Of a stretch of 63,544 nt of DNA, positions 16,785 to 63,544 are shown one piece after another. The notes below the pieces were generated by a model. That model was not told the origin of the DNA. It saw only the letters and a list, made by a program, of their open reading frames with translations, and ran no database searches. Numbering within the stretch: position 1 is the first letter of the stretch; each line of letters begins with the position of its first letter. Source of the stretch: Candidatus Woesearchaeota archaeon (GTDB taxonomy: Archaea > Nanobdellota > Nanobdellia > Woesearchaeales > GW2011-AR4); assembly GCA_002688775.1 (NCBI GenBank), contig NZDH01000016.1:1-63544 (forward strand), in the 5' to 3' direction. The position numbers were made by a program, and so were the translations under genes.

Positions 16785-17089
16785 TTAATGAGCAGCGCGT
16801 CTATCTCTAACTGCTATCTCTACTGCTTTATCTAATGTTATTTCTTGAGCGTCAGGATGCAATTTTCTAGTGTGTTCCGGTGTTATCGTATCTCTTCTAC
16901 GATATATCCCTATATATGCATCATCTAGAATGTACCCCCTTTTCCCTCCCACATCAAAGCAGGCCCTAATCTTACACTTAAATGGGGAGACCCTTCAAGG
17001 ATTAAGTTGACTAAATCATAATGACCAGAACTATCAACCTTTCCAGTGTAAACAAAATCTCTACGTTGCTCAAGTCTGGTGCTTGCCAT
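16785..17089 (-). pseudogene. About 101-aa compositionally foreign ORF split by a -1 frame change at a G5 run (plus-strand C5 at 16935-16939)
   Basis: Hand translation. MASTRLEQRRDFVYTGKVDSSGHYDLVNLILEGSPHLSVRLGPALMWEGKGG then TAG at 16925-16927. The -1 frame continues YILDDAYIGIYRRRDTITPEHTRKLHPDAQEITLDKAVEIAVRDRRAAH*. One extra G restores a 102-codon frame. Confidence 0.45.
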
Positions 17090-17096
17090 TTTCTGT

Positions 17097-17867
17097 TCAC
17101 TTCAAACTTTCAGCAAACAAAACGTCAACTGCGCTGACAAAGAAAGGGCTGTTGATCCAGATTGAAACTTCGTAATCCGGTGCGACGCTTACGTTTGAAA
17201 TCATGAAAATCATTTCTTTTCCGTCTATTGTCAAAAAGCTCGAGTTTGGATTGTATTCAATATGCTCGATATTTTGCAATTTCTTCATGACGTCCTTGTT
17301 ATAAGGGCTGTATAATCTTACTTTCATACCTTTTTTTCCGAAGTTTGGCATGAAGTTTTTCAATAATTTTGCAATTCTGTCAAGATGCTGCTGTGTTGCA
17401 ACAATCACAATGCTTGATTTCGCTTTAGGAATTACATCCTTTATGAACCTGTTAATGTTTGTTCTTCCAACGATTGATTTTGATATTGATGAAACGTCAA
17501 CATGCTTAACTCCTGTTTTATGCAAAAGTTCAAGTTCTTTGAATTCGCTTGTTTCTTTGATGTTGTCCATCTGTTTTTCTAATTCATCAGCATCTTCCGT
17601 GATGTTTTTCTTGACCCTGTCAAGAATTATTTCTGGTTTTACTGCAAGATATTTTATTGGCTTTCCAATTTTCATTATAATGAAGCCTTTTTTCTCCAAT
17701 GATTCAAGAACATCATAACATCTTGATCTTGGCACACCAGAAATATCCGCTAACTCGCCAGCAGAAGCTATCCCCCTGCTCAGCAAAGAAGTCCAAATTT
17801 TTACTTCGTAAATATTAAGCCTGAAGTGTTTCTTCAAATCCAGCAAAAATTGTTTTTCCTGTTGCAT
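17097..17867 (-). CDS. TrmB-family transcriptional regulator
   Basis: 256 aa. N-terminal HTH YEVKIWTSLLSRGIASAGELADISGVPRSRCYDVLESLEKKGF plus a TrmB-type C-terminal domain. Confidence 0.75.
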   Translation of the reverse strand: MQQEKQFLLDLKKHFRLNIYEVKIWTSLLSRGIASAGELADISGVPRSRCYDVLESLEKKGFIIMKIGKPIKYLAVKPEIILDRVKKNITEDADELEKQMDNIKETSEFKELELLHKTGVKHVDVSSISKSIVGRTNINRFIKDVIPKAKSSIVIVATQQHLDRIAKLLKNFMPNFGKKGMKVRLYSPYNKDVMKKLQNIEHIEYNPNSSFLTIDGKEMIFMISNVSVAPDYEVSIWINSPFFVSAVDVLFAESLK

Positions 17868-17977
17868 TTTTAACTAAAAGTATCGTGCATGTATATTTAA
17901 AGCTTTCTATTGAATAACTACTTTAAAGTGGTGTATCAAATATATTGAATAAAAATAAATTTAAAAAAAGAAAGAAA

Positions 17978-19057
17978 TTAATCCCTTCTTGCAAACAAAG
18001 TCACAAGCAAGATTATTCCTGCAATCACTGCGATTATCTCTATTGCTATGATTGAGATTACAAAAGCATTTCCCTTGAAGAATCCTTCCTGTGTTACTGT
18101 TGTACCAGGAGGCAAAGGAGGCTGTATTACAATTGTTGGTACTTCAGGAGTTGTTTTTGGAGGTGGAGTAACTACAACGACACTGTTGTCACCTTTTGAA
18201 TCTGTAGTACCACCTTGTTTAGTATCTGTTGTTCCGCAAGCATTAACAGTCAAAGTAACTGTATTCTCAACTTTTCTCCTGTTATTGTCGTATAAAGCCC
18301 TTACTGTTACTGGATAACTACCTGCTTCAATAGTACTTGGAACGTTAAATGAGTATATTTTTGAAAACTTGCTTTCATCTTCGAATGGCTCAGCTGTTAT
18401 CTCCTGCAGATCTTCCCTTATATCAACAGCCAACTCTGTGTTAAAAATATGCAAGTTTACATCGTCTTCATCTTCATTTCCTATATTGAGTAAACCTACA
18501 CTTAACTGGACATTCCTTCTGCTGCAAGAAACTGTGTTAGGGCTTAGTGAACTTCTTGTTAAGCTTAGTAAATGTGATTCCTTATCAACTTCAAGTGTTA
18601 ATGTAATTTCTCTTTCATGGTCTGTGCCGTTTTCATCTTCCCCATCAACACGGATTATAACCTGGAAATCATCTTCCTCAACTTCTAAAGGAATTTCAAA
18701 TTTCAGTGTACTTCTTTTGTCTCTGCCATGCCTTAGGTCAAAGTCTTTTGACGACTCTTCAAAATCATCTCCATCATCTATTTCCTCAATTGTAACTTCA
18801 ACTTCTACATTCTCTATTTTTAGATTTTCAGCGCTTGTAAAATTATTTTTTACTTCAACTCTAAATTCAATTGTGTCCCCAGGCTCTGCATCCCTGTCAA
18901 TCCTATCTCCATCTTTTACGTTTTTGTCAGACTTGCCGCCAACTTTTACATCAATATCGCTAAAAAGTAATTTTGAGCCAACAGCGTGGGCTACGCTCAT
19001 CAAGAAAATGAATATTACAAAACTTATTAACAATGATTTTAGCTTAATTTTAACCAC
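17978..19057 (-). CDS. Secreted, C-terminally anchored acidic surface protein (CARDB-like beta-sandwich repeats)
   Basis: 359 aa. N-terminal signal/TM segment, D/E-rich repeats, a Thr/Pro linker (VVVVTPPPKTTPEVPT...) and a C-terminal TM ending ARRD. Confidence 0.6.
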   Translation of the reverse strand: MVKIKLKSLLISFVIFIFLMSVAHAVGSKLLFSDIDVKVGGKSDKNVKDGDRIDRDAEPGDTIEFRVEVKNNFTSAENLKIENVEVEVTIEEIDDGDDFEESSKDFDLRHGRDKRSTLKFEIPLEVEEDDFQVIIRVDGEDENGTDHEREITLTLEVDKESHLLSLTRSSLSPNTVSCSRRNVQLSVGLLNIGNEDEDDVNLHIFNTELAVDIREDLQEITAEPFEDESKFSKIYSFNVPSTIEAGSYPVTVRALYDNNRRKVENTVTLTVNACGTTDTKQGGTTDSKGDNSVVVVTPPPKTTPEVPTIVIQPPLPPGTTVTQEGFFKGNAFVISIIAIEIIAVIAGIILLVTLFARRD

Positions 19058-19225: not shown

Positions 19226-19474
19226 TTATTTGTAAATATTCCTTCTGTGGCCGGCCTCAATAACAAAAATCATTAACTTATTTTCTTTTATATCTAAAAT
19301 AACCCTATAGTCGCCTACTCTTAAACCATAATATGGCCCTACTAACTTTTTAACATGAGCATGCGGTCTTATCCTGCATCTTTCAAGTGTAGAGACTATT
19401 CTAACTTGTATATCTTTATTTAGTTTTTTTATTTGTTTAAAAAATCTATCAGAATATATTAATTTGTACATCAT
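19226..19474 (-). CDS. relE: RelE/ParE-family type II toxin
   Basis: 82 aa. ...KKLVGPYYGLRVGDYRVILDIKENKLMIFVIEAGHRRNIYK. 4-nt overlap with the upstream antitoxin. Confidence 0.75.
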   Translation of the reverse strand: MMYKLIYSDRFFKQIKKLNKDIQVRIVSTLERCRIRPHAHVKKLVGPYYGLRVGDYRVILDIKENKLMIFVIEAGHRRNIYK

Positions 19475-19689
19475 AGTCCGAGCTTCTTCTTAAGTTGCTC
19501 ATGAGTAATATATTTACCTTCCTTGAATTCCTTCTCAGCTTGCTTTATATGTCTCTTTGTTTGTTCAGACAATTCAAGAGTATCTTCCAATAAATCCCAA
19601 ATAATATCTTCATAACTTTCTTTATCATACATTTTTCTGATTTTAAGTTCTTTCATCAGTTTATTAGTTACTTGAATTGTAGTTGCCAT
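19471..19689 (-). CDS. Cognate antitoxin (small helical protein)
   Basis: 72 aa, directly upstream of and overlapping the RelE-like gene. C-terminus ...KYITHEQLKKKLGL. Confidence 0.6.
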   Translation of the reverse strand: MATTIQVTNKLMKELKIRKMYDKESYEDIIWDLLEDTLELSEQTKRHIKQAEKEFKEGKYITHEQLKKKLGL

Positions 19690-19785: not shown

Positions 19786-20361
19786 ATGGTTGGCAACATT
19801 CCGAATTACACTAAAATTGATGTTCTTCGATGTTTTTTAAGGCTTGAAAAGAACATCGGAAGGCAGGATCTGGCAGATGAGCTTGACCTTGGAGAGGGCA
19901 CTGTAAGGACAATTTTAGATGTCTTAAAGTCCAAGAAATTGATCGATTCCACAAAAAAAGGGCATTTCCTGAGCAGGAAAGGGGTTGAAATCTTAAAAAA
20001 TATTTTTGAATCTGTCAGTTTGCCTAAAGCAGTTGAAGTAAAAAATATCTATCCTGAATTTCGGAAAGTTGCTATTAATATAAGGAAAGCTCCTGCACTG
20101 AATGGATTATATAAACTTAGAGATTTGGCTGTCAAGAACGGAGCTGATGGCGCAATAATATTAAAATTTGAAAACAAGCTTTATGCTCCTGAATCTGATG
20201 TTGAACGGGATTTTGGAGAGCTAGAAAAATATTTTGAATTAAAAAATAAAGATGTTTTAGTTGTTGCTTTTGCTAACAATAAAAAAGATGCTGAGAATGG
20301 AGCTTTTGCGATTGCTGTTGAGCTGAATAGTGAATTGGGGAAGTTTGTTGAGGGGGTTTGA
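19786..20361 (+). CDS. Winged-helix domain protein with an uncharacterised C-terminal domain
   Basis: 191 aa. IGRQDLADELDLGEGTVRTILDVLKSKKLI is HTH-like. Host-like composition. Confidence 0.5.
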   Translation: MVGNIPNYTKIDVLRCFLRLEKNIGRQDLADELDLGEGTVRTILDVLKSKKLIDSTKKGHFLSRKGVEILKNIFESVSLPKAVEVKNIYPEFRKVAINIRKAPALNGLYKLRDLAVKNGADGAIILKFENKLYAPESDVERDFGELEKYFELKNKDVLVVAFANNKKDAENGAFAIAVELNSELGKFVEGV

Positions 20362-20374
20362 TGGGTTTGTTTTA

Positions 20375-21520
20375 CTACAATTCACTCAAAGGAACCAGCA
20401 TTGTTGTACTTCCAAATATTCTTTGTAAGGCAATTAGATAATGTTCTGGTATATCTAATCCTACTGCTTCTTCTTTCTTAACTTGCTGGAGGTGATGTGC
20501 TGGATCATTCGGATCAATCTCATTTCTATAATATTGGTCTCTGTCAACTAGCTGGATTTCTCTTGTAACTTCAGGATGCGACTTGGCAGTTACTTTTCCA
20601 ATAAATTTGTAACTTCTGAATCCGTTCTCTTTTGGTTCATCATAATAATCCTCCATCTTAATAATCTTTATCCCAGATCTTCTTATACTTGATGCTTGTT
20701 TTAAATCTCTAGCAAATTCATGTACTTCATCTTCTGTTGCCAACCCAACTCTATGAGCTGCTCCGTCACTTACTACGTCATCTTCATCTATAACTCTTTG
20801 GACCAATGTTCTTGTGTTTTTTCTTTTGAATGATCGTTTTAATCTGTAGCTTACAAAAGGTGGACTATGAGTTCTGTAATGTTCGAAAGAAGGCAATTCA
20901 ACTCTGTGAATGTCCACATATCCGACATTATTTCTGTCGACAGTTTCTGTTACTAATGGCAACAATTGTGTAGTATCTAATACCTCATCTTGCATAAATG
21001 GAAGTAAATCCCGGTCATTAAAGTAAAAAAACTTAGAACCCTCTATTAAGAACCCTTCAATTCCACGTCCTTGCAGACTTTCTCTTTGATGCGATAAGAA
21101 TTCCCCTGTTTTTGTTCGGGCCATATAGTCATCAATAGTTTCCCTATAGCCATCAGCCGATCCTGGAATGCTGTGAGCCCGATATAATTCGTGAGGGTTG
21201 GTTCCAAGATCAATTCCAAGTGTACTTTTATGCTCCTCATCACCTACAAATTTTCCATTAACTACTAACACAACACGTTTAGTTGGGCCTTTTCCTAGAA
21301 CTTCCTGTGCAAGATCCAAAGCAAATGAATAAGTTGAATTGTCTAATACAGCTTTAACATATTGAAATTCTTGTTCAGCATCTGATAATAATTGAGCGTC
21401 TAACTTTTGATGATTTCCTGTTCTAATTCCCCTACGTATAATGCCCATTGCTCTGTAAAGAGGATTACTTGGCCTCGAATAATTTCTCATAATGTTAGGT
21501 TCATTATATTTTGTTCCCAT
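20375..21520 (-). CDS. Foreign-composition protein with a C-terminal RelA/SpoT (RSH) synthetase-like nucleotidyltransferase domain
   Basis: 381 aa. The motif blocks occur in canonical order: YRLKRSFKRK (225-234), DGAAHRVGL (252-260), EDYYDEPKENGFRSYKF (290-306), EIQLVDRDQYY (321-331). The N-terminal ~220 aa are unassigned. Confidence 0.6.
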   Translation of the reverse strand: MGTKYNEPNIMRNYSRPSNPLYRAMGIIRRGIRTGNHQKLDAQLLSDAEQEFQYVKAVLDNSTYSFALDLAQEVLGKGPTKRVVLVVNGKFVGDEEHKSTLGIDLGTNPHELYRAHSIPGSADGYRETIDDYMARTKTGEFLSHQRESLQGRGIEGFLIEGSKFFYFNDRDLLPFMQDEVLDTTQLLPLVTETVDRNNVGYVDIHRVELPSFEHYRTHSPPFVSYRLKRSFKRKNTRTLVQRVIDEDDVVSDGAAHRVGLATEDEVHEFARDLKQASSIRRSGIKIIKMEDYYDEPKENGFRSYKFIGKVTAKSHPEVTREIQLVDRDQYYRNEIDPNDPAHHLQQVKKEEAVGLDIPEHYLIALQRIFGSTTMLVPLSEL

Positions 21521-21610
21521 TTTGAAACAATCAAATCACCATGAGTGTTATTTAAACCTTTCTGTTTGTACTACTAGAAGGTGGTGTTGATTTATTTTAG
21601 AAATAAATTA

Positions 21611-23179
21611 TCACATTAATAACGATCGTGCTATTCCTTTATATCGACTTGAGCTTAATCCACGGTTCGGTGAATTTAAATCAGCCACATGCTGCCAATA
21701 ATTTGGCATGAGGCTTCTGAGCGCTTCTACTCCTTCAAGAGTAAAAAACTTATGTTTTTCCGGATCAAGTTGATCCACATCATCTAATGGTGTTACTCTT
21801 CCGTCTGAATTGGGCGCATTAACGCCATAAGTTCTGAGAAATCCAAGAATGGCTTCCCTGAAATCTCTGGTGTGTCGATAATTTTGCTGGCGCAATTCAG
21901 GATGGTCATCAAGTGATTGGATCACTTTTCTTGGCAAGGGATCCCATACCATCCAATCTCGTGCAGGCCCATATATTGTAAGTCCTCCGTAGAAGTTGCC
22001 TCTTTGTTTGCTTCTTATTTCATCATCAACTGTATGTTTAATTCTTGCAATTTCAGGAAATTTTTCATAAAATCCAATGACTTGGTCTGATAATTCTAAT
22101 GTTGCTCGTCCCATTTCTCTTGTGCTGACAATCGCTAACCATTGTAGGGCTGCAGTTCTACTTGCTCTTAAAGTTCCCAATATATATGGGGGGAGTTCAT
22201 TAAAAGTTTCACTTGCATGGTGCAATGGCAAAATCGATTCGAAAACCATCCTAATTCTTTCAGCACCTGACATAGGTACTGCATGATCCCTAACTGTGCC
22301 ATACATTTCTCTCAAATACTGGCCTGTTTCGTCTGTGTCGTTAAACGCTTTATATATCCCTCTTTGAGTTACAGGTCTAACCAACTGCCCTGTTTCCCTC
22401 ATATTTACATTTCTGTCAGCATTCTTTATCGAAATTCTTCTAAAAGTTACATCAGGATGTTCCTTGGCGCTAGGTGCTACATCAAATCTCCTATATTGAT
22501 CTCCAACGGAAAAAGGATAAGGACTTCTATCAGGAAATCGCGTGACCCCAAAAATAAGATGGGCCGCTCCGGTTATACTTTGTTCAAGATCTTCTCTTTT
22601 AGATGCTCTAACACTAGGAGGTATGTACCCCATTAATTCTGTCCTTATTTCGTCCCTTTTTCTGGATATTGTTTCTTGTAGCTGCACAGTAAGAGCTTCT
22701 CTTTTTTCATGATTACCTTCAATTGTCGCAGATCTCCACCCCTCATTTAAAATCTGCACTTCTGCATCATCTTCTGGCCTATCATGCCCTGTGTGTCCCA
22801 GCAGAATCATGAAATCAAGCGGGACATTTGCAAGTTTGGAATTTCTCAGTGCTTCAACTACATTTCTGTCAATATGTGAGAATGCGTGCAAGCCGCTATT
22901 TCTTCTAGGCCCAAGTGATTTTGCAGCTTCTCTGGTTGAATCTTCAAATCTTTGTGCTATTTCATATTCCGCACCACTTAACCAATCTGGAAACCGGGAA
23001 AAACTTTCCTGAAAGGATTCTCTGTCAAAAATGCTGCCAATATGATAACCGTCAACTACAACAAATTTTCTGCCTTGTTGCCCATCCTGAACAGAATATC
23101 CGGAAGCGCTTGTAGGACTATACCTACCGAGAGATTGTGTTAAGAATTCTAATCCCCTTCTTACTATTGGTAAATCCAT
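21611..23179 (-). CDS. Foreign-composition 522-aa protein with degenerate metallophosphoesterase (ApaH/PPP-like) motif spacing
   Basis: FSHIDR (100-105), LLGHTGHDRP (126-135) and GNHE (155-158) have the spacing of GDxHG/GDxxDRG/GNH[ED]. The remaining ~360 aa are unassigned. Lies 90 nt upstream of the RSH-like gene on the same strand. Confidence 0.5.
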   Translation of the reverse strand: MDLPIVRRGLEFLTQSLGRYSPTSASGYSVQDGQQGRKFVVVDGYHIGSIFDRESFQESFSRFPDWLSGAEYEIAQRFEDSTREAAKSLGPRRNSGLHAFSHIDRNVVEALRNSKLANVPLDFMILLGHTGHDRPEDDAEVQILNEGWRSATIEGNHEKREALTVQLQETISRKRDEIRTELMGYIPPSVRASKREDLEQSITGAAHLIFGVTRFPDRSPYPFSVGDQYRRFDVAPSAKEHPDVTFRRISIKNADRNVNMRETGQLVRPVTQRGIYKAFNDTDETGQYLREMYGTVRDHAVPMSGAERIRMVFESILPLHHASETFNELPPYILGTLRASRTAALQWLAIVSTREMGRATLELSDQVIGFYEKFPEIARIKHTVDDEIRSKQRGNFYGGLTIYGPARDWMVWDPLPRKVIQSLDDHPELRQQNYRHTRDFREAILGFLRTYGVNAPNSDGRVTPLDDVDQLDPEKHKFFTLEGVEALRSLMPNYWQHVADLNSPNRGLSSSRYKGIARSLLM

Positions 23180-23326
23180 TGTTAAACTAATGTTTTGCTA
23201 AATTACAGCAAACAATCTATCTTTTCGTTTTCTCCTCTTATTTCAACAACCCCCAATAGCGATAAAGTGATTTCTTACTTTAAAAAGCTATGCCTTTTGG
23301 ATTATATAAATTATATAGAACCAGAT

Positions 23327-27669: not shown

Positions 27670-27966
27670 TCAATCTTTTACCTTGTATTCTACATCTACA
27701 TATTCTTTTTGGCTTTTTTTATGCTTTTTGTTTAATGATCTAAGTTTTAATGCCCCTATCAAAAACATCAGCAATGAAAACAGGATTACCAACAGGATGA
27801 TTCCAACAGACAATGCTATTATTCCCCCCACAATGATCAAGTACCATTTTGAAATAAATGTCAATACTGCCCACCCCTTGTCTCGTGAATAGAGGAATAT
27901 AAAATAGATTATGATAAGGCTGAATATTGTTCCAAATCCGAAATTCCACTGTTTTCTTACCTGCAT
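27670..27966 (-). CDS. Small membrane protein
   Basis: 98 aa, 2-3 TM segments, abuts both neighbours. Confidence 0.45.
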   Translation of the reverse strand: MQVRKQWNFGFGTIFSLIIIYFIFLYSRDKGWAVLTFISKWYLIIVGGIIALSVGIILLVILFSLLMFLIGALKLRSLNKKHKKSQKEYVDVEYKVKD

Positions 27967-28349
27967 TATTTTACAAAATTTTTCTGCAAAAATAACGACA
28001 TTTGCTTGTTGTCCGCTGCTTCATACGCTTTTGCAGCCAGATCATATTTGTTTAACTTGATGCACATTAACGCTGCTTCGTTTAGCTTTTGCTTATCCTT
28101 TGTCGGTATAAAACAAAGTGTTGCAAGTTCTGTTTTTCTTTCCTGCAAAAATAAATCCCCTAGTTTTATCAGTCTTTCTGTGTCTCCGCTTTTTGTTATG
28201 ATTTCAATCGCTTCCAAAAGCTTGCCCTGCTTGAAAAGCTTGTTCCCGACATCGGTGAGAATGTTCTTTCTTGACTTTTCATCAAGCATTGAAAGGCTTA
28301 CTGAGTTAATTCCCTCTTTTAGGATCTTTTCCACAATGGGGTTTTCCAT
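27966..28349 (-). CDS. Hypothetical helical-repeat (TPR-like) protein
   Basis: 127 aa, helical, host-like composition. Confidence 0.5.
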   Translation of the reverse strand: MENPIVEKILKEGINSVSLSMLDEKSRKNILTDVGNKLFKQGKLLEAIEIITKSGDTERLIKLGDLFLQERKTELATLCFIPTKDKQKLNEAALMCIKLNKYDLAAKAYEAADNKQMSLFLQKNFVK

Positions 28350-28429: not shown

Positions 28430-28852
28430 TTATGCTTGTGGCCGCCTTGCTGTATTGGTAAAATTAATTTGTCCGATAAGATTATCTGTCTTCAATTCAT
28501 AATCAGGGTAAGCTGCCTGGACAAGCTTCAAGAGATTTTGATAGATTCCACTACGGTATGAATATCCAGAAAAAAGCAAGGCTCGCCTCAATTGATTTGG
28601 TTCATCTTCAGATATAAGATAAAAATTTAATTCGGTTTTTCCGAACAGATCATACTTAGCCTGGCTAACCCCCCTTTCCATCTGGCCTCTCAGTATTGTC
28701 AATACAGTTCTAACCTCTTGGTGTGTTATGGCATCTAAAGTCTCTCTTGCTTCTTGGACTGTTGGAGTCACTTCCCCTATAAGAAAATCGATAAATCTGG
28801 GTTTTAATTTATGTCCGAAAAGTAATTCCCCAACATCAAGTTTTACCGCCAT
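28430..28852 (-). CDS. Foreign-composition hypothetical protein (140 aa)
   Basis: The ORF has a TTTATAAAA box about 30 nt upstream of the ATG. No family recognised. Confidence 0.55.
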   Translation of the reverse strand: MAVKLDVGELLFGHKLKPRFIDFLIGEVTPTVQEARETLDAITHQEVRTVLTILRGQMERGVSQAKYDLFGKTELNFYLISEDEPNQLRRALLFSGYSYRSGIYQNLLKLVQAAYPDYELKTDNLIGQINFTNTARRPQA

Positions 28853-28924
28853 TTAACCAACGGAGTATGGAGTTTATGGGGTTTTATAAAGATAGGGGGT
28901 GGTTTGTTTGAAGGGGTTTTAGAA

Positions 28925-29416
28925 TTAGAATCTGGTGTCGGCAACTAAATCGTCTATACTTTCGTAAGACCACCCAAACAATTCGGATAATCGTTGAAAA
29001 TTGGCAGATGATGGTAAACTTATACCTTGTAAGTATTTGTAAATCATTTTTTCGCTTAAGTCCATTATTTTGGCAAGCCAATAGTCCGATTTGCCTTTTT
29101 TTCCCAAACTATCCCTTAATAATGTACTAAAGGCAATATTTTCTGGTCTGGACTGTCTCTCAAGTGCTAAAGCTTCTTCATAATGGGCATCGGAGTTATA
29201 CCCTTTTCGTCTAGCCAGAGCGTCCCTATATTGGCTTCTGGTGGCAAAATTACTTCGCTTGAGCTGTCGTGGCCTTTCAACATACCTTCTTGCTGTACTG
29301 TATGATACCTTCAATTCATCTGCTGTCCCAACTAGAGTGCTACCTCCATCGTATATTCTCTGCATGCCCCGGATAGTTTTATAAGGGGTTTTATTATGGG
29401 GTTGCATAGTTACCAT
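28925..29416 (-). CDS. Foreign-composition protein with two HTH motifs (N-terminal resolvase/sigma-r4-like, C-terminal XRE-like)
   Basis: 163 aa. LVGTADELKVSYSTARRYV and YWLAKIMDLSEKMIYKYLQGISLPSSANFQRLSELFG. Confidence 0.6.
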   Translation of the reverse strand: MVTMQPHNKTPYKTIRGMQRIYDGGSTLVGTADELKVSYSTARRYVERPRQLKRSNFATRSQYRDALARRKGYNSDAHYEEALALERQSRPENIAFSTLLRDSLGKKGKSDYWLAKIMDLSEKMIYKYLQGISLPSSANFQRLSELFGWSYESIDDLVADTRF

Positions 29417-29490
29417 AATTTTTCGTAATGTGTATCATTTAATAAATATTACTGAAAAATAGAATTAGTTCATGTCTTTATAATCAACAG

Positions 29491-29688
29491 CTACTTTACC
29501 ACAATCTTGATCTTTTTTTTATCTCCTTCTTTTCTCAGGTTTCTTAACGTGTAATTCTTTATGTTGTTCGCCTTGGCCCACTTGTTTGCAGATTCTTCTG
29601 ACTTGAAGGCTTTGGGTCTTGATTTTCCCGGTACTATCCTGTCTACTCTCAACCTGTTTGAAAATAATCTGCATGCCATTTTGATCAA
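29491..29688 (-). CDS. Small basic hypothetical protein
   Basis: 65 aa, K/R-rich, immediately 3' of tRNA-Arg on the same strand. Confidence 0.35.
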   Translation of the reverse strand: MIKMACRLFSNRLRVDRIVPGKSRPKAFKSEESANKWAKANNIKNYTLRNLRKEGDKKKIKIVVK

Positions 29689-29721
29689 TATTTCTCTTTT
29701 GTTTTTAAAGGTTTGTTAAAA

Positions 29722-29807
29722 TGAGCCTGGAGGGATTCGAACCCCCACTGCCAGGTTTCATCTAAATAACCGAAGCCTAGTTTGCTATCCAGTTACAATA
29801 CAGGCCC
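29722..29807 (-). tRNA. tRNA-Arg (anticodon TCG) with a 13-nt intron at or next to position 37/38
   Basis: Minus-strand fold read by eye. Acceptor GGGCCTG/CAGGCTC. D stem TTGT/GCAA. Anticodon stem CTAGG/CCTGG enclosing 20 nt (CTTCGG + TTATTTAGATGAA + A). T arm GGGGG-TTCGAAT-CCCTC. 86 nt = 73 + 13. Confidence 0.8.
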
Positions 29808-29866
29808 ATGAAAATAACCCTAAATAGTTTAATATTTAAAACTATTTAAAATAAGAAAGAATTAGT

Positions 29867-47580: not shown

Positions 47581-47862
47581 ATGGCATCTAGCTTAGGTGG
47601 ATTGGGTTCAGAAACTATAAGTTATTCGGATTTGTCTGTTGACCTAGTCACACTTAGATCGACAGTTTCTCAACTGGAAAAGGCTGTTGAAGTTGGAATA
47701 GTGACTAAGGCAAATCTACTGTATATTATAAGGAGTTTAATTCAAGCAGGTAGATTCAGTCCGGATTCAAGGGAAATGGCGGTTATTGAGAATTTTTATT
47801 TAGACACTTATCGTCAGCACTTGCCAGAAGATATAAAGTATGCTGGCGCTAGAGAACCTTAG
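47581..47862 (+). CDS. Foreign-composition hypothetical protein (93 aa, helical)
   Basis: Follows 47206-47517 on the same strand. No family recognised. Confidence 0.5.
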   Translation: MASSLGGLGSETISYSDLSVDLVTLRSTVSQLEKAVEVGIVTKANLLYIIRSLIQAGRFSPDSREMAVIENFYLDTYRQHLPEDIKYAGAREP

Positions 47863-49026: not shown

Positions 49027-49041
49027 CTTAGAACACCTTTT

Positions 49042-50052
49042 TTATTTTATCCCAAAACTTTTATTTGTCATTTCTATTGACTTTTGACCATCCTTAAATC
49101 CAGTCATTGCCCTTATGCAGTCAATGTTTTCCGGTACTACATCTGATTCCTGATGGACTGCCTGCATGTAAAGCAATTTATTGTAGCCATTTGATACTGC
49201 GCCTATCGCTTCTTTCCAGACGCAAATCTCCGGCATATCTCCTCTTTGCCTGCCTAAATCCCTGGCAAATTCTATTATTTCGGCAGTTGATCTTAAATGC
49301 TCTGCATTTCTTACTATCCTAATCCTTGTTGCACTGCTTAAAGCATCAATAACATCATCAACGTTCACCTTTTTCTTGACATCAGCTATTACAGTATGAA
49401 CGTGCATCAAAGTCGAAGGAACGCTCAGGGCAGTTGTAAATATCTGGCATTTTGGCAAAACGCTTCGAACATCAGGACCATGATGAGATGGCATCTCTAA
49501 AACTGGAACAACTGCGTTTATTGGGCCATGACGTATATCTCCTGGATCAGCTCCCCGCCTAATCAATGTTGCATGGACGCTTGTTATATCAAACTTGTTC
49601 AATGCATGCAAAGTCCTGCAAAGGCCAGTTGTATTACAACTTACAATCCTAACAAAATCTTTATTCAATGCTTCATCGTAGTTACACTGCGCTACAAAAG
49701 AAGTTCCGGTTGTTTCGTGTTTTTCACCGCCTTGAATTATTGCCTTGACTTTTTTTGGCTTATAATATTTCTCAATGTTTTCTTTTCCTACTTTTTTAGG
49801 AGTTGCGTCTACAATGATATCCACTTCTTCAAGGAGATTATTTATGTCACCAGCTGGTTTTATGCCATTTAATTTTAAATCTCCATCATCACCTACAGTA
49901 AATATCTTGTAGCCCTTTTCATTTGCAACTTCAGTGTTAAAACTATAAGAGTGTGCAGTAACACCTGTAAGTTTCATGTCTTTCTGCATTGCAACTGCAT
50001 CAGCGACTCTTTTGCCTATTGTTCCGTATCCAACAATCCCGACTTTTATCAT
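49042..50052 (-). CDS. gap: Glyceraldehyde-3-phosphate dehydrogenase, archaeal type
   Basis: 336 aa. MIKVGIVGYGTIGKRVADAV and active site SCNTTGLCR. Confidence 0.92.
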   Translation of the reverse strand: MIKVGIVGYGTIGKRVADAVAMQKDMKLTGVTAHSYSFNTEVANEKGYKIFTVGDDGDLKLNGIKPAGDINNLLEEVDIIVDATPKKVGKENIEKYYKPKKVKAIIQGGEKHETTGTSFVAQCNYDEALNKDFVRIVSCNTTGLCRTLHALNKFDITSVHATLIRRGADPGDIRHGPINAVVPVLEMPSHHGPDVRSVLPKCQIFTTALSVPSTLMHVHTVIADVKKKVNVDDVIDALSSATRIRIVRNAEHLRSTAEIIEFARDLGRQRGDMPEICVWKEAIGAVSNGYNKLLYMQAVHQESDVVPENIDCIRAMTGFKDGQKSIEMTNKSFGIK

Positions 50053-54735: not shown

Positions 54736-55638
54736 TTAGTTTGATAGGTAAATATTTTTTCCAGATTTTAAATTTGAAAAATCAGTTGCAGGGAAAGTGC
54801 TAAATCTGCCATTATTTATTCTGGATGTCAATAATTGACCATTGTTCATATTAATATCACTTGACCAAGTTTGCGCTTTATATGGTTGAAAAACCTGATC
54901 CGAATATTTTTCAAGTATGAATTGTTTAATAATCTTGCCATGATCAAAAGCGTAATGACTGCCATTAATAGACATCAATTCTTTTGGTGTTGCAGTCCTT
55001 GCAGTTCCTGCATCGTGAGTTAGATTTGAGTGTGCTAATGTTTCAAAATCTGCTCTGGATTTTAGTTTGATTATATACACATAATTCGTATAAAGTACAC
55101 CATCAATTTCTTGAGTAGAAGTTCTATAAAGTTGTGGATTTTTAGTTAACTCCTTAATTAAAACAGATTGTGCCTTTTCAGGAACTTCTTCTGTTATCTC
55201 CCTTACCAAAGCATCCAGATGACTTTCATCAGTCTGGTCAATTGCTCCGCCAAGAAGACCTAATGTTCCCTTGTATTCTTCAAAACTGTAGTCTGGGCTT
55301 TTTTGCTCGAGAAAAAATTCAACTCTGCCTGTTTCAGGATCTTCATGATAGATTATTGCAATCGCACCATCAGTTGTAATTTCTTTTGATGGCTTAGTTG
55401 ACTTGGATCTAGCTTTGTGGCTTGAGTATGCTCTTTTTAACGGGATGTATTCTCTGCTGTTTGGCGTTGCTTCGCCATCTGTTAGTCTGGCTTCTAAACC
55501 ATCCTTAGGTTCGCTAGTACTTAATTCTCCGTCTGATTCGGTCATATCACTAGCTGCAGCGTAGGATTCTCCGTCTAGACTAGACTGTTCAATAGGTGAA
55601 TCATCTACAGGCCCTTCACCCCCACTGGATTCTTCCAT
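54736..55638 (-). CDS. Foreign-composition Nudix-hydrolase-like protein with an acidic, Ser-rich, low-complexity N-terminus
   Basis: 300 aa. Nudix-box-like GGAIDQTDESHLDALVREITEEV (about residues 130-152, with one extra residue before the first Glu). The first ~90 aa are D/E/S/G-rich. Confidence 0.6.
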   Translation of the reverse strand: MEESSGGEGPVDDSPIEQSSLDGESYAAASDMTESDGELSTSEPKDGLEARLTDGEATPNSREYIPLKRAYSSHKARSKSTKPSKEITTDGAIAIIYHEDPETGRVEFFLEQKSPDYSFEEYKGTLGLLGGAIDQTDESHLDALVREITEEVPEKAQSVLIKELTKNPQLYRTSTQEIDGVLYTNYVYIIKLKSRADFETLAHSNLTHDAGTARTATPKELMSINGSHYAFDHGKIIKQFILEKYSDQVFQPYKAQTWSSDINMNNGQLLTSRINNGRFSTFPATDFSNLKSGKNIYLSN

Positions 55639-55736: not shown

Positions 55737-55994
55737 CTACTCATAAACTCTAGGTCTTTTATCAATCTTAGCTACAAGGATTACTCCATTTTCTTTCAAT
55801 TTGTATAAAGCCCTATAATCTCCAATCCTAATTCTAAAATTCTTACCTTTATCATCTCTAGAAATAAATTTAGCGTCACTTGGGACCGGAGTATGGGGTA
55901 ATGATTTGAGTTTTTCTTTAATACGGTCACTAAGATGTTTATCGAGTTTGTCTAAGAATTTAGCTGATTTCTGCGATAATTCTACTGAAAACAA
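55737..55994 (-). CDS. relE: RelE/ParE-family type II toxin
   Basis: 85 aa. ...FRIRIGDYRALYKLKENGVILVAKIDKRPRVYE. Confidence 0.75.
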   Translation of the reverse strand: MFSVELSQKSAKFLDKLDKHLSDRIKEKLKSLPHTPVPSDAKFISRDDKGKNFRIRIGDYRALYKLKENGVILVAKIDKRPRVYE

Positions 55995-56165
55995 TTATAA
56001 CTTCACCGTTTTACCTTTTTTCAGGTCATCTTCAGCTTCGCTCAATGCTTCGACGTCATCTTTAGTCAGGATAGTGTCTGCATCAACCATGTGGTTCTTA
56101 ATGTAATCCAGTTCGGATTTAATTTCATTCAATTTGTCCATTATCATTTTTGTTTCAGATGCCAT
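55995..56165 (-). CDS. Putative antitoxin (56 aa, below the ORF-track cut-off)
   Basis: Hand translation: MASETKMIMDKLNEIKSELDYIKNHMVDADTILTKDDVEALSEAEDDLKKGKTVKL*. Its stop abuts the toxin start. Confidence 0.5.
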   Translation of the reverse strand: MASETKMIMDKLNEIKSELDYIKNHMVDADTILTKDDVEALSEAEDDLKKGKTVKL

Positions 56166-58172: not shown

Positions 58173-58448
58173 ATGAGGTATACACAATTATTACGAAAAG
58201 TAAATGAAGCTCAGAAAGCGCCCAGGCCATATGATTATGGAAATTTTGATGAAAGTTGGGATCGAGTCTTTAGAAATGCCAGAAGGATTTTAGAAAATCC
58301 TTCCTCTAGCATCGACGATAAAACACGTGTAGTTGATATTATGGGAAATTTAATTGTGGATTTATCTAAGCATAGACCTTATGGAGAGGTGCTGAAATAT
58401 TTAAGAATTTTCCAACAATCAGTTCAAGAATACTATACTGTGAATTAA
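58173..58448 (+). CDS. Foreign-composition orphan (91 aa) between sdo1 and rrp4
   Basis: MRYTQLLRKVNEAQKAPRPYDYGNFDESWDRVFRNARRILENP... No family recognised. Same strand as the operon. Confidence 0.5.
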   Translation: MRYTQLLRKVNEAQKAPRPYDYGNFDESWDRVFRNARRILENPSSSIDDKTRVVDIMGNLIVDLSKHRPYGEVLKYLRIFQQSVQEYYTVN

Positions 58449-59880: not shown

Positions 59881-59881
59881 A

Positions 59882-60714: not shown

Positions 60715-61029
60715 ATGTTTGAAAAACATGCAGTTATTGGAAGATTCAAGGATGATGTTGCACAACATCTTGAAGTAATTGAAAGCGAGATTGAAAAAGG
60801 GAACAGGGAAGAAGCAACACTTTGGCTTAATGAACTTCTTATAATGAAAAAAACTTGGGAAACTTCTTTAAATACACCAAATTTTGCAATCACTGCACAT
60901 TCATGGGTGAATCCCTCAACTTTGGATACTGGATCTACAAAACATCTTGCTGCAGAAAGAATTCGAATAGTGGATGGAGCAATTGCACTTGTTCACGAAA
61001 AATTTCAGGCTAAAGGTTGGAGTACCTGA
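60715..61029 (+). CDS. Foreign-composition hypothetical protein (104 aa)
   Basis: ORF only. Its 3' end overlaps the convergent 61005-61844 gene by 25 nt. Confidence 0.45.
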   Translation: MFEKHAVIGRFKDDVAQHLEVIESEIEKGNREEATLWLNELLIMKKTWETSLNTPNFAITAHSWVNPSTLDTGSTKHLAAERIRIVDGAIALVHEKFQAKGWST

Positions 61030-61844
61030 TTAACAATAATTCTAGAAACATTTTGACCTCTTACTCTATCTCCACTCTCAACCAAAGTATGATGTAATTC
61101 ATAATGGATTGGATCAACACCCTGTTGCACCAAAAACTTTCTGGCTCCTTCTTCACTTGCTAACTCACGTTCTAATCCTTGAAAATCTTTTCCCGATCTA
61201 AGATTTTGAACTTCAGCAATTTCATGGGCAAGTATTATACCTCTAACAGCGTGTTCAAAATCTTTCATCGTGGATTTATATCTTTCAAATCTTGGATCAT
61301 GTTTTAATGTGTACATTAAAGCTGTTATAAATGTTACAAAATTTTCTCTAACGTACATTTCTTGAAGATCAGAAGAAGTGCAACCAGCAAATAATATTGA
61401 CAAATTAGCTGTTTGTTCATTATGTAAACTTGAATATGATACATTTCTTCCGGAAGGATAAGTATGTGTTCGCTTTACTGGATCTGCAACTAATAACCAA
61501 TTATCATGACCCATTGCAAATTTGCCAGTTCTGGCAGCAATAGTTGCAGCGATATCACTTGTAGGCATATCATAACTTATACCATCATAGAGGACTGGTA
61601 ATTCACTTTCCGGAATGGGTTTTGGGATATGATGTGTAATTCTTCCTTCTAAAGTTTTAAGCCTTCCAAGCAAAGTTGATAGCTGTTGTCTAGTAGGTTT
61701 TTCGTCAGCAACTAAGTAGCTCATCAAGATATCATTAGGATATTTTTTTGTATCTGCCAGTCTGTGCAGTTCTGTAGGTCTGACCGGTTGCCTATAGTGT
61801 CTTGCAATCGTTTCTAGATCTTTAGCTGAATACATATAAACCAT
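61005..61844 (-). CDS. Foreign-composition hypothetical protein (279 aa)
   Basis: R/H/T/P-rich. Contains AHEIAE, which is not a canonical HExxH. No family recognised. Confidence 0.55.
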   Translation of the reverse strand: MVYMYSAKDLETIARHYRQPVRPTELHRLADTKKYPNDILMSYLVADEKPTRQQLSTLLGRLKTLEGRITHHIPKPIPESELPVLYDGISYDMPTSDIAATIAARTGKFAMGHDNWLLVADPVKRTHTYPSGRNVSYSSLHNEQTANLSILFAGCTSSDLQEMYVRENFVTFITALMYTLKHDPRFERYKSTMKDFEHAVRGIILAHEIAEVQNLRSGKDFQGLERELASEEGARKFLVQQGVDPIHYELHHTLVESGDRVRGQNVSRIIVNQVLQPLA

Positions 61845-61845
61845 T

Positions 61846-61875
61846 AATTTAACTTAGTTTATAAATTTAACTTAG
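61846..61875. promoter_or_regulatory. 12-nt direct repeat AATTTAACTTAG (61846-61857 and 61864-61875) in a divergent promoter region
   Basis: Read directly from the sequence. Lies between the starts of 61005-61844 (-) and 61951-> (+). Confidence 0.4.
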
Positions 61876-61950
61876 ATTACTACTTCTTAGTAATTAAAAT
61901 AGAAAGATTTATAAAGAGGAAAATTGTTGCAAGAGTATTTATAAACTAAA

Positions 61951-63544
61951 ATGCCTAAAAAGAAAACTGATCTTAATGCTCTGGTCAGAAAGACAGATAT
62001 TGAGGGTTTAGTACGTTGGAAACCAGAACCAACCGATATAGCAAGAGTTGATGAAGTTAGGCAGGGTTTTATTGGACTAGAAGAAGACCTTACTTATTCT
62101 GAAGTTCATGGCAAATATCCAACTGAAATTAAAGTAGATGATGATGACTCAGTTATGGCACTAGTAAGATCAAGGGCCGAAATAGTTGCTAGACATGATG
62201 TTGACAGTCTTGAAGGATTGAGAAGAGAAAGTGGATTGGATATACACAGAGAAGAATTAATAGAGGGCATCCGTAAAGACATTTCATTTGATGAAGGTCT
62301 TAAAAAACTACTCGTGTACATCAATAAATATGGCACAGATAGATTAGGAGAATTAGGTATGAGTAGGGCAAGAACTTTACGTGATGTAGCTAAAGTGATG
62401 CCAGAGATTTCTTCTGCAGAGATAGCGTGGTTATCAACCTTAAGATCAGTTCCAGATGTTTATCTTCAACAAAATAGAGGTGTGCCAACCATTCTTGATT
62501 TTAACGTTGAGGGTATAGAATTTGGATTTGATGGATTAGATAATTTTGAATTGGAAAGAATAGCATCATTTGATGCATACGCAGCTGCAGGATTTACAGG
62601 AGTAGCTGAAGGAGTAACTTTTAAACCATATGAAGCCAAATTTGCAAAAGCTTTCAAGGCATTAGCATTACTAACATTATCAGACTCGTTAGTTTATACT
62701 AAATTGTATGACCAACAAAGCGCTAACTCTTTAGTAAAAGGGGAAGGTAACTTAAAAAGAAAGCTTATAGAAAATAATATCGAACATTATTCTTTTACAG
62801 CGGAAGAACTTGAGAAACATAAATTAAGAGATTTAGATTTGAGTTCTGATGAACATAGTGAATTGGAAGATAGAATTCGAGACACTCTTGCTAATAAACA
62901 ATTATTTGATCTTGGCAGGGATGCGATGTGTTCTACATCAGATTTAGTAACAACTGTTGGTTTATTAGAAAGAGTTCCTGAAGTTTTAGTAGGGGGTGAT
63001 AAATTTGCCGGATATGTCTTACCATTTGGTAAAGGTTTGAAGTTTTTAGATCAAGATGGAAACGAAGTTGAATATGTAGCATACGATCCCTATTTACGGC
63101 TGGAGGCGCAACAACATATCCATCATGCATCGGTAGACATTTCTAGAAATAATCAACTGGTTCACTGGTTTTTTGATGCATATGCCCAAGATATAGAAGC
63201 GAGAATTAGTGGAGATGAAACATTACCTATTGATAGGTTAAGGGAAAGATTTAGAGTTAATTATGGAACTGTAGTTCCTACAAGAGCTGTCAAATCCATC
63301 ACAGCTATAGGAAATTTCATGGAAGTTGGCAACTTAAAAACAAGTGGCTTAGGGATTGGTTATACATTAAAAATAGGAACAGATGAGCTTCAAGTTCTTT
63401 TAGATGTTCTTGACAAACTTCCAAGAGATTTAGTTCCTGAAATTACAGCTGTACACCGTAGAAGGACAATGTCAGACTCATTAGCTATGTTTATAGGTGG
63501 ATTTGAAAAATTGGGATCATATTCTAGAGATAATAGAGATATTA
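61951..63544 (+). CDS. Large foreign-composition hypothetical protein, 5' part (more than 531 aa, runs off the window)
   Basis: Not in the ORF track because there is no stop in the window. Hand translation from ATG 61951 (MPKKKTDLNALVRKTDIEGLVRWKPEPTD...) stays open to 63544. Confidence 0.6.
   Translation, partial: MPKKKTDLNALVRKTDIEGLVRWKPEPTDIARVDEVRQGFIGLEEDLTYSEVHGKYPTEIKVDDDDSVMALVRSRAEIVARHDVDSLEGLRRESGLDIHREELIEGIRKDISFDEGLKKLLVYINKYGTDRLGELGMSRARTLRDVAKVMPEISSAEIAWLSTLRSVPDVYLQQNRGVPTILDFNVEGIEFGFDGLDNFELERIASFDAYAAAGFTGVAEGVTFKPYEAKFAKAFKALALLTLSDSLVYTKLYDQQSANSLVKGEGNLKRKLIENNIEHYSFTAEELEKHKLRDLDLSSDEHSELEDRIRDTLANKQLFDLGRDAMCSTSDLVTTVGLLERVPEVLVGGDKFAGYVLPFGKGLKFLDQDGNEVEYVAYDPYLRLEAQQHIHHASVDISRNNQLVHWFFDAYAQDIEARISGDETLPIDRLRERFRVNYGTVVPTRAVKSITAIGNFMEVGNLKTSGLGIGYTLKIGTDELQVLLDVLDKLPRDLVPEITAVHRRRTMSDSLAMFIGGFEKLGSYSRDNRDI

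Follow-up and report, generated by a model that had tools for sequence, protein, structure and literature searches.

Lysine- and cysteine-poor genes between conserved operons of a marine Woesearchaeota genome are probably native, fast-evolving members of its flexible genome

The archaeal contig NZDH01000016.1 (GenBank assembly GCA_002688775.1), 63,544 nucleotides long and hereafter called the window, has a G+C content (GC) of 35.7% and derives from one uncultured marine Woesearchaeota (DPANN) species that is near-clonal across ocean assemblies. Between its conserved operons lie single or paired open reading frames (ORFs) that an earlier reading of the letters, the original prediction, had flagged as compositionally foreign orphans and explained by repeated small lateral acquisitions or by a lineage-specific accessory gene pool, a chimeric or contaminated assembly being the alternative. 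We consider it probable, without being certain, that these flagged ORFs are genuine fast-evolving genes of the flexible genome of marine Woesearchaeota, lineage-specific and of conflict or regulation type, and not recent foreign DNA. They are coding sequences written in native codons, they are present here and undetected in relatives at the nine loci that can be compared, they occupy junctions of variable content in a sound assembly, and similar ORFs of relatives diverge fast. Each of the flagged loci holds an ORF except the first, which is broken:

16785-17089, minus strand: decaying relic of an ORF of about 100 aa, of the flagged compositional class, at the TrmB|proteasome-beta junction.
20375-21520, minus strand: 381-aa protein with a divergent, putative small-alarmone-synthetase (SAS; RelA/SpoT nucleotidyltransferase)-like domain at residues ~212-326; no Cys.
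21611-23179, minus strand: 522-aa ORF of an undescribed family, with a predicted N-terminal RelA/SpoT-type HD hydrolase domain and an all-alpha C-terminal half of ~260 aa.
28430-28852, minus strand: 140-aa ORF in an insertion of ~1.3 kb just 3' of tRNA-Pro; R/(R+K) 0.59, no Cys.
28925-29416, minus strand: 163-aa double helix-turn-helix (HTH) protein, N-terminal resolvase/HTH_7-like and C-terminal XRE/HTH_3; absent from the relative's locus L063.
40802-41461, minus strand: 219-aa ORF; Pfam Acetyltransf_9 at E=0.09 only; R/(R+K) 0.68, no Cys, GC at third codon positions (GC3) 0.26.
47206-47517, plus strand: 103-aa ORF without family match; R/(R+K) 0.80, K 1.9%, no Cys; found on 20 contigs.
47581-47862, plus strand: 93-aa ORF without family match; R/(R+K) 0.67, no Cys.
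54736-55638, minus strand: 300-aa protein with an acidic low-complexity N-terminus of ~90 aa and a Nudix-hydrolase-like domain.
58173-58448, plus strand: 91-aa ORF between SBDS and Rrp4, inside the exosome superoperon; identical in all assemblies.
60715-61029, plus strand: 104-aa ORF directly after Rrp42; 25 nt at its 3' end are shared with the next ORF.
61005-61844, minus strand: 279-aa ORF without family match; GC3 0.20; three population single-nucleotide polymorphisms (SNPs).
61951-63544, plus strand: 833-aa ORF, of which the first 531 codons lie in the window; full length from L049:3090-5591.

The core genes among which they are scattered comprise a histidine operon, the beta-CASP/KH nuclease CPSF, both proteasome subunits, TrmB, prolyl-tRNA synthetase (ProRS), carbamoyl-phosphate synthase, riboflavin genes, an intron-bearing tRNA-Pro and the archaeal exosome superoperon (Pop5, PsmA, SBDS, Rrp4, Rrp41 and Rrp42).

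Foreignness had been argued from a GC-richer DNA said to be common to all loci. The spot count offered as an example, 23 G or C among the 60 positions 22381-22440, is exact; the generalization fails. When the 12 intact flagged ORFs were compared gene by gene with the 57 other window ORFs of at least 80 aa, mean GC was 0.378 against 0.358, a difference that is not significant (p=0.06), and five loci (54736, 58173, 60715, 61005 and 61951, GC 0.337-0.371) lay no more than 0.02 above the window mean of 0.357 or below it. The GC-richest stretches of the window are core genes (CPSF 0.42, exosome genes 0.40-0.41). By codon position, the flagged ORFs are richer at the first (GC1 0.496 against 0.432, p=5e-4) and second (GC2 0.381 against 0.315, p=4e-5) and poorer at the third (GC3 0.258 against 0.328, p=4e-4), the last value falling within the range of host low-expression genes. 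Since the excess sits in codon positions 1 and 2, the apparent GC-richness results from amino-acid choice; at third positions, which report the background DNA composition, the flagged ORFs are AT-richer. Antisense shadow ORFs, supposed to accumulate at these loci, are equally dense in flagged (1.25 per kb) and core genes (1.38 per kb). Arginine is encoded by AGA or AGG in 82% of cases in the flagged ORFs and 88% in the host, with no move toward CGN. Relative synonymous codon usage differs from that of all core genes (distance 0.623, null 0.348+/-0.063, p=0.002) and is indistinguishable from that of 25 low-GC3 host genes (0.417, null 0.397+/-0.076, p=0.35), so that the synonymous sites appear to be those of weakly expressed native genes.

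The distinguishing mark of the flagged class is the make-up of its proteins. Lysine amounts to 4.9% of residues against 10.7-11.2% in the other ORFs and arginine to 7.6% against 4.0%, giving R/(R+K) of 0.60 against 0.27 (p=4e-7); histidine (2.1x), glutamine (1.5x) and proline (1.4x) are likewise enriched relative to host proteins and isoleucine is reduced (0.6x). The description of R/H/P/Q/G/D-rich proteins set against a K/N/I/E-rich host is thus correct for the wealth in R, H, P and Q and the poverty in K, N and I, and incorrect for aspartate (1.2x), glycine (1.0x) and glutamate, which is not below host level. The depletion of cysteine had escaped notice: only 2 of 2926 residues are Cys, compared with 157 of 16128 (1.0%) in the other ORFs, a 14-fold difference (Fisher p=2.7e-9), and 10 of the 12 intact ORFs are Cys-free. 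The median isoelectric point (pI) is 6.2 instead of 9.2, AAN codons are halved, and AAA trinucleotides number 38 per kb against 66.

Pfam, PHROG and other family searches of the window revealed no integrase or transposase domain, and repeat searches found no direct or inverted repeat, attC-like ones included, flanking and shared among the flagged ORFs, in agreement with the original prediction. Paralogy among the flagged ORFs was not found either. Repeated recent acquisition of compositionally foreign DNA is therefore not borne out: AGA/AGG usage is host-like, GC3 is lower, and neither a donor nor a mobility gene or repeat is found. Integron-type gene cassettes were rejected for want of an integrase domain and of repeats at the ORF ends. 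A viral or phage origin was also rejected, as PHROG matches are limited to the Nudix and HTH domains and no viral relatives emerged, whether in IMG/VR (three ORFs), among BFVD structures (model of the 522-aa protein) or by tblastn of 11 concatenated flagged ORFs against 50,697 phage records.

The other proposal, a lineage-specific accessory gene pool scattered among core operons, gains support from synteny. Relatives' DNA covers nine flagged loci, with up to 48 relatives at the exosome operon and three at ProRS. A scan with Rrp41, limited to one genome per species, provided the 48 loci, 62-88% identical to the window in Rrp41 and labelled Woesearchaeota, Nanoarchaeota/Nanoarchaeia or 'archaeon'; 19 of them are TPA bins named 'uncultured Methanosarcinales' that are probably mislabelled. 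The named ProRS relatives, at 83-85% identity, carry the labels Woesearchaeota or Nanoarchaeota. At about 85% core identity, none of the nine covered loci has a detectable counterpart at the syntenic place in these relatives.

Around the exosome operon, Pop5, PsmA, SBDS, Rrp4, Rrp41 and Rrp42 are kept in 38-48 relatives, no homologue of 54736, 58173, 60715, 61005 or 61951 is detectable nearby, and the same junctions hold other small ORFs. Junction sizes across relatives extend from -4 to 1097 nt and, for PGM|Pop5, from 61 to 3726 nt. In most Woesearchaeota the SBDS|Rrp4 junction does not exceed 30 nt; the window has 320 nt there and its closest relatives 305-1097 nt, occupied in those relatives by small ORFs on the same strand that mostly share high R, low K and low GC3. 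Comparison of the occupant groups with hhalign gave 0.004-0.09 against 0.3-0.7 for controls, values that are suggestive and not significant and that would be compatible with one diverging family; a single homologous family was not accepted, phmmer linking two pairs only. The ORF 58173-58448 probably represents, in the window, a small helical protein that diverges rapidly and has been kept at SBDS|Rrp4 in the closest clade.

Near ProRS, three relatives' loci (L061-L063, 83-84% identity) share with the window the backbone CPSF, PsmB, TrmB, a 359-aa gene, DUF4443 and ProRS. Between DUF4443 and ProRS they encode phosphoribosyl pyrophosphate (PRPP) synthetase (prs), where the window has the pair of 381-aa and 522-aa genes (19786-23326); prs is found nowhere in the 63.5-kb window, although a PRPP-dependent histidine operon is present. 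It may be a coincidence that prs and the enzymes replacing it alike transfer pyrophosphate from ATP. Collinearity with L063 extends from ArgRS to MarC; there tRNA-Pro(CGG) is followed directly by the homologue of 27966-28349, and the three ORFs of 28430-29688 are missing. The TrmB|PsmB junction is empty in one of the three relatives, holds a 76-aa ORF in another and five genes in a third, and in the window contains the broken locus 16785-17089. This locus, presented as an ORF, breaks up into a pair of ORFs that differ in frame (16925-17089 and 16785-16952); all 8 assemblies examined have the frameshift at GGGAGGGAAAAGGGGG, and a 1-nt indel near 16857 segregates in 3 of the 8. A non-coding RNA at this place was rejected in favor of a frameshifted ORF relic, Rfam giving no match even at E<=10. 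Gain, replacement and decay of junction genes are all visible.

The rate at which such genes change was measured on relatives. In the loci L002 and L045, whose core proteins are 91-97% identical (dS about 0.4-0.6), the R-rich ORF at SBDS|Rrp4 has retained 52% amino-acid identity, with a nonsynonymous divergence (dN) of 0.37 and a ratio to synonymous divergence (dN/dS) of 0.43. The adjoining K-rich ORF is 89% identical (dN about 0.05, dN/dS 0.13), and five conserved flanking genes are 91-97% identical (dN 0.02-0.05, dN/dS 0.03-0.12). In a second pair, L003 and L008, in which dS is saturated, the R-rich ORF shows 45% identity and dN/dS of 0.26 against 0.065 for its neighbours. The R-rich junction ORFs of relatives thus evolve about 10x faster than their neighbours (dN/dS 0.26-0.43). 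An ORF inherited vertically and changing at that pace would escape recognition by BLAST over the distance separating the window from its nearest relatives, so that a missing match is not proof of insertion, and at SBDS|Rrp4 vertical descent with rapid divergence is as likely as insertion.

Variation within the population points the same way. Although the population is near-clonal (the 29 kb covered contain 10 SNPs, 9 of them in 26.5 kb of coding sequence, too few for strain-level dN/dS), 6 SNPs fall in 6.6 kb of flagged and 3 in 19.9 kb of core coding sequence; two thirds (6/9) of the coding SNPs, of intermediate frequency, therefore lie in 25% of the covered coding sequence (binomial p about 0.01). 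Half of all SNPs (5 of 10 in ~29 kb) are concentrated in the overlapping ORFs 60715-61844, at intermediate frequency (3-8 of 10 assemblies); elsewhere in the segment, samples taken in different oceans agree at 99.9% or more.

The 'orphan' status of the flagged ORFs is largely a detection limit. The original label does not apply to the 522-aa ORF, the one ORF searched exhaustively: a HMMER scan of it against 1.84 billion representatives returned 50 proteins, 46 of them at E<=1e-10. Homologue searches based on a word index were uninformative, missing the ORFs' own clusters and even a 100% identical fragment found by the exhaustive scan; the GGS linkers of the concatenated query may have swamped the index.

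The smallest flagged ORFs (91-104 aa) might be suspected of being chance ORFs or non-coding sequence. Four of them (47206, 47581, 58173 and 60715) lack homologues and domains, 16785-17089 is demonstrably broken, and the SNPs in 60715-61029 are all nonsynonymous. Each of these small ORFs nevertheless displays the periodicity GC1>GC2>GC3 and the class-specific make-up of the long ORFs; their placement between operon genes is same-strand and tight, and a length of ~100 codons is uncommon for chance ORFs at 36% GC. Similar junction ORFs of relatives moreover have dN/dS of 0.26-0.43, below 1. Non-genic origin is consequently very improbable; codon periodicity is strong in the flagged ORFs, whose lengths reach 833 aa.

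That the flagged pieces belong to another organism and were joined to an archaeal contig by the assembler has, apart from their distinct amino-acid make-up, nothing to recommend it. Gene order is identical in at least 14 independent assemblies at a nucleotide identity of at least 99.9%, including all flagged ORFs at 16.7-23.2 kb and 54.7-63.5 kb. Identical junctions occur in Tara assemblies (ERR599062, ERR594345, ERR594290, ERR599037 and SAMEA2620097) and in others (JGI 3300020423, 3300035205 and 3300020364; ERZ840571, ERZ841001 and ERZ27286381/4; GCA_001370095; a Logan SRR run), so that all examined junctions agree across samples and pipelines. The flagged ORFs also have host-like codon usage and lie only a few bases from host genes of the same operon. 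Chimeric assembly is refuted for the covered regions, 8-25 kb and 50-63.5 kb, and we accord contamination practically no weight. Exact window proteins are found on 9-20 contigs each, from Tara Oceans and other marine data; in the collection no 90%-identity protein cluster contains a second species, and there is no sister species within 90% protein identity.

These observations can be brought together as follows. The junctions between conserved operons would be clade-wide hot spots where small genes come, swap and go. The flagged genes would be residents rather than fresh imports, their synonymous sites resembling those of the host's weakly expressed genes. Judging from the R-rich junction ORFs of relatives, their nonsynonymous rate may be ~10x that of the flanking genes with dN/dS below 1, and BLAST would lose the homologues before the nearest sequenced relatives are reached, which would make the genes look orphan. 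A conflict or regulatory function is suggested by the putative domains (RSH-type HD hydrolase, where RSH stands for RelA/SpoT homologue, SAS-like, Nudix, double HTH and a zincin-like motif) together with two RelE/ParE loci nearby, which would make the cargo a set of nucleotide-signalling, toxin-antitoxin/defence and regulatory modules. Genes of these types typically show fast turnover and divergence.

Several observations weigh against this reading. The rate was measured on similar ORFs of relatives, not on the window's own; no relative's locus covers 40802, 47206 or 47581; and the exhaustive scan concerns the 522-aa ORF alone, so that the other eleven flagged ORFs may be true orphans. Codon-boundary dinucleotide odds ratios differ from those of core genes (0.134, null 0.064+/-0.015), the flagged values being mostly nearer 1. 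The downstream partners of the homologues of the 522-aa HD gene (354, 269 and 174 aa) are unrelated to each other and to the 381-aa ORF, which shows that the pairing of HD and SAS-like genes is not conserved. Above all, the make-up is the opposite of the K/N/I-rich proteins expected from fast evolution under AT-biased mutation and must therefore be maintained by something else, either selection or origin. Native fast evolution leaves the avoidance of Lys and Cys unexplained.

Origin would supply the answer if the genes had been acquired laterally long ago from donors of higher GC (GC-richer Woesearchaeota or other DPANN, for instance), and their synonymous sites had since ameliorated to the AT bias of the host while the Arg-rich, Lys-poor proteins of the donor were retained. 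Presence or absence is genuine at several junctions, prs has been replaced, one insertion adjoins the 3' end of a tRNA gene, and the HD family lies at a different locus in other Woesearchaeota. In make-up the proteins are like mid-GC proteomes (Woesearchaeota at 48-51% GC have K 8.5% and R 6.4% in their conserved proteins), and the established model of amelioration has GC3 equilibrate first. We nonetheless regard old transfer as unlikely. No donor has been found, the phage and viral searches brought up no relatives, integrase, transposase and repeats are lacking, and both GC3 and the choice of codons match the host fully. In proteins that evolve fast, amelioration should have reached codon positions 1 and 2 too. 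The scarcity of Cys is not accounted for by the composition of a donor, since proteins of GC-rich Woesearchaeota have a normal content of 1.2%. Finally, more R than K and little Cys are found throughout 34 members of the HD family, and in L064 and L059 (37% and 34% GC) the family gene has a higher R/K ratio, 0 Cys and low GC3.

Alternatively, the make-up itself could be a functional signal, selection keeping these proteins poor in Lys and Cys for action beyond the cytoplasm of the archaeon, after delivery to a host cell or exposure on it, for escape from Lys- or Cys-directed modification or degradation, or for escape of the mRNA from interferases of the RelE/HigB type that cut A-rich codons. 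Toxin A chains are lysine-poor, and some bacteria exclude cysteine from exported proteins. The 14-fold depletion of Cys and the halving of AAN codons and scarcity of AAA accord with such selection, as do the two RelE/ParE toxins within the window and the persistence of the trait across a family at 22-44% identity and at another locus in a second Woesearchaeota genome, where the HD gene and its partner have lower GC3, higher R/K and 0-1 Cys compared with their neighbours. The proposal is still distinctly improbable. Signal peptides or secretion signals are not visible and the window encodes no secretion apparatus; the HD hydrolase, SAS, Nudix and HTH domains are ordinary cytoplasmic types. A crude set of relatives' R-rich junction ORFs, probably contaminated by spurious ORFs, is not Cys-poor (1.3%), and Cys depletion as a clade-wide trait was not seen in it. 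It is accordingly a speculative idea, to which we assign a small probability, that DPANN carry a class of fast-evolving proteins defined by make-up and avoiding Lys, Cys and AAN codons against mutation bias, in which the junction ORFs, the one inside the exosome superoperon included, might be a symbiosis or conflict toolkit and the 522-aa HD family its first tractable member. If the make-up is selected, it could provide a sequence-only marker for symbiosis or conflict proteins of uncultured DPANN archaea.

Two observations concern the distribution of the make-up. An ORF at 17978-19057 (minus strand) encodes a 359-aa acidic protein (pI 4.6, K 5.8%, GC3 0.26) with hydrophobic N- and C-terminal segments, which resembles the flagged class yet is conserved at the same place in relatives (54-58% identity); the make-up is therefore not exclusive to variable genes. 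Beyond the 3' end of the window, more ORFs of flagged-like make-up follow the 833-aa gene (L055:107-1153, 1552-1962 and 4733-5146): two ORFs of 137 and 136 aa with R/(R+K) of 0.62-0.71 and GC3 of 0.21-0.23, and a Metallophos protein with R/(R+K) of 0.64 and GC3 of 0.23 but 9 Cys.

We return to the native genes with the 522-aa ORF, whose family comprises 50 homologue clusters, most of them full length and 22-44% identical. The three RSH hydrolase motifs occur in it in order, RxSGxxxxxH (R93-H102), HDxxED (H132-D137) and KxADRxxN (K252-N259), and among 34 sequences R92/93, S95, G96, H102, H132(D133), E136(D137), K252, D255 and N259 are invariant or nearly so. The family motifs align with residues 13-81 at the N-terminus of Escherichia coli SpoT (hhalign E=4.3e-5, probability 69%), and weak PDB matches to GTP pyrophosphokinase chains (E=0.27-0.31) are collinear in the three motifs. 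None of the 34 members matches a Pfam model. An AF2 model computed with the family alignment is all-alpha (pLDDT 87, pTM 0.87); Foldseek found no significant PDB or BFVD match to it, the best being the HD-superfamily PDE10 (probability 0.6, E=0.28). Hydrolysis of (p)ppGpp or (p)ppApp would be the predicted function. Over its 34 members the family has more R than K (mean 0.58) and 0.9 Cys per 525 residues. In other Woesearchaeota it stands at a different locus, in the order DUF371, HD family gene, variable partner and PUA methyltransferase. In a scan of metagenome loci, family alignment A1 proved too diverse and A2 yielded two short contigs only.

The 381-aa ORF and the 522-aa ORF are both on the minus strand, 90 nt apart, and the pair is present in all assemblies. 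For the 381-aa protein, four libraries align residues 212-326, each under its curated thresholds: Pfam RelA_SpoT (E=1e-4, 23 bits, cut-off 27), PADLOC PDC-S33 (E=3.4e-6, weak, and the sole match to a defence-system model), NCBIfam YjbM (E=4e-4) and, in the same region, PDB RelP/RelQ chains (E=0.02-0.4). Comparison with SpoT shows that DYYDEPKENGFRS is kept (DYxxxPKxNG motif). In the sequence itself the second synthetase motif, ExQIRT, reads EIQLVD, with E and Q kept and R and T replaced. AF2 prediction from the single sequence was unusable (pLDDT 31).

Other domain hints of the original prediction, Nudix, HTH and a faint GNAT, are like RelA_SpoT real in the sense that profile searches recover them, and like it they stay under curated cut-offs. 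For 54736-55638, Pfam reports Nudt16-like (E=9.5e-5, 22.8 bits, cut-off 27) and NUDIX (E=0.017, 15.6 bits, cut-off 21.1), PHROG reports MutT/NUDIX (E=5.6e-7), and the PDB matches are 2pqv and NUDT16. Its Nudix box reads GGAIDQTDESHLDALVREITEEV, in which E-x7-RE-I-x-EE is intact, the G-x5-E spacing deviates by one residue and the closing G is lacking. The double-HTH ORF 28925-29416 matches Pfam HTH_3 (E=2e-4), several weak HTH families and, in PHROG, a DNA-invertase C-terminal HTH (E=2.9e-5) and a transcriptional regulator (E=1.2e-4); it is likely a DNA-binding regulator without a recombinase catalytic domain. Its neighbour 28430-28852 has no family match and is absent from the collinear L063. 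The 833-aa ORF (1 Cys, R/(R+K) 0.58, GC3 0.22) has no Pfam, PDB, PHROG or PADLOC match; a zincin-like HETGH...EEDFAEHF motif, seen by eye only, lies beyond the window end. The ORF 60715-61029, with two intermediate-frequency nonsynonymous SNPs, has no homologue in the 48 relatives' loci, and the 90% cluster of 61005-61844 holds 8 near-identical variants.

The junctions also carry cargo that had not been flagged, and the tRNA-Pro insertion a third ORF:

19226-19689, minus strand: RelE/ParE toxin and antitoxin pair (Pfam ParE_toxin), absent at this place in L061-L063.
55737-56165, minus strand: second ParE/RelE toxin (Pfam ParE_toxin) with a 56-aa antitoxin, adjoining the Nudix ORF in the PGM|Pop5 junction.
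29491-29688, minus strand: 65-aa K-rich ORF of uncertain gene status in the tRNA-adjacent insertion, without counterpart in L063.
29721-29808, minus strand: tRNA-Pro(CGG), 88 nt with an intron, detected by ARAGORN and Rfam, at the edge of the 28430-29688 insertion.

Both RelE/ParE pairs are host-like in composition, K-rich and basic; since the flagged ORFs are not, the junction cargo falls into two compositional classes. No duplicated tRNA fragment was found at the far edge of the insertion, and no att-type repeat at tRNA-Pro. The syntenic tRNA-Pro of the relative (L063:3138-3310), seen by alignment, apparently contains two larger insertions and was not detected by ARAGORN.

The arrangement recalls the hot spots and ORFans of flexible genomes, in which conserved flanks enclose variable cargo at the same junctions across related genomes and this cargo is short, unannotated and fast-diverging, includes toxin-antitoxin pairs, and is visibly gained, replaced and decayed. 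It departs from flexible-genome hot spots in consisting of single genes or pairs instead of islands, in occupying one spot inside a packed exosome superoperon and in lacking mobility genes and repeats. In contrast to classical ORFans, which are A+T-rich, only GC3 is lower here, and the cargo is marked by amino-acid make-up, not base composition. As in integrative elements, the tRNA-Pro gene is followed immediately on its 3' side by ~1.3 kb of additional genes, an HTH regulator among them, that a collinear relative lacks, but there is no integrase, duplicated tRNA end or att-like repeat.

Small alarmone hydrolases (SAHs) are small single-domain proteins, unlike the 522-aa hydrolase of the window with its large extra C-terminal domain. 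Where SAS and SAH genes are neighbours, they can constitute a type IV toxin-antitoxin pair (PMC7229694). As in such toxSAS/SAH pairs, for example FaRel-ATfaRel (PMC7229694), the SAS-like gene of the window adjoins an RSH-type HD gene on the same strand; the differences are the archaeal host, EIQLVD in place of ExQIRT, and hydrolase homologues with unrelated partners. With the N-terminal half of long RSH proteins (Rel/SpoT) the two genes share the order of hydrolase then synthetase and the HD motifs RxSGxxxxxH, HDxxED and KxADRxxN; unlike long RSH proteins they are separate, lack TGS and ACT domains, reach Pfam thresholds in neither half and find no significant structural counterpart in the PDB. 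Among archaea, RSH proteins occur rarely and sporadically (PMC3153485).

For AT-rich archaea with small genomes, these results carry a warning: an orphan ORF of GC-rich appearance can be both native and fast-evolving. Whether DNA is foreign has to be judged by GC3 and codon usage instead of total GC, and absence at BLAST level does not prove insertion at ~85% core identity. They also offer leads. One is an undescribed family of ~520 aa that combines RelA/SpoT-type hydrolase motifs with a confidently predicted fold, in archaea, where RSH proteins are rare; another is that this family is paired here with a synthetase-like gene at the position that PRPP synthetase holds in relatives. Two more are the variable slot within an archaeal exosome superoperon that is otherwise rigid, and the strong, unexplained avoidance of Lys and Cys by the accessory proteins of a marine DPANN population that is almost clonal and distributed worldwide.

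Some features of the core genes deserve mention. The alanine dehydrogenase ORF at 47911-49026 (minus strand) has no in-frame ATG, GTG or TTG in its first ~90 codons; the mechanical call starts at 48750 (279 aa), and the lengths in NCBI records, 367-371 aa, imply that translation starts at ATH (Ile) or another non-canonical codon. On the plus strand, the 65-aa ORF at 48890-49087 is the antisense shadow of this gene. Similar G+C-rich hairpins (CCCAGCAAA...TTTGCG) at 33918-33956 and 42256-42294 stand just downstream of two riboflavin genes, ribB-like at 33959-34576 and ribA-like at 42298-42903, and may be shared terminators or a regulatory element. In the histidine operon two fusions were recognized by eye: HisC with a HAD-like C-terminal domain (574 aa; 1032-2756, plus strand) and HisA-HisI-HisE in one 407-aa protein (4670-5893, plus strand).

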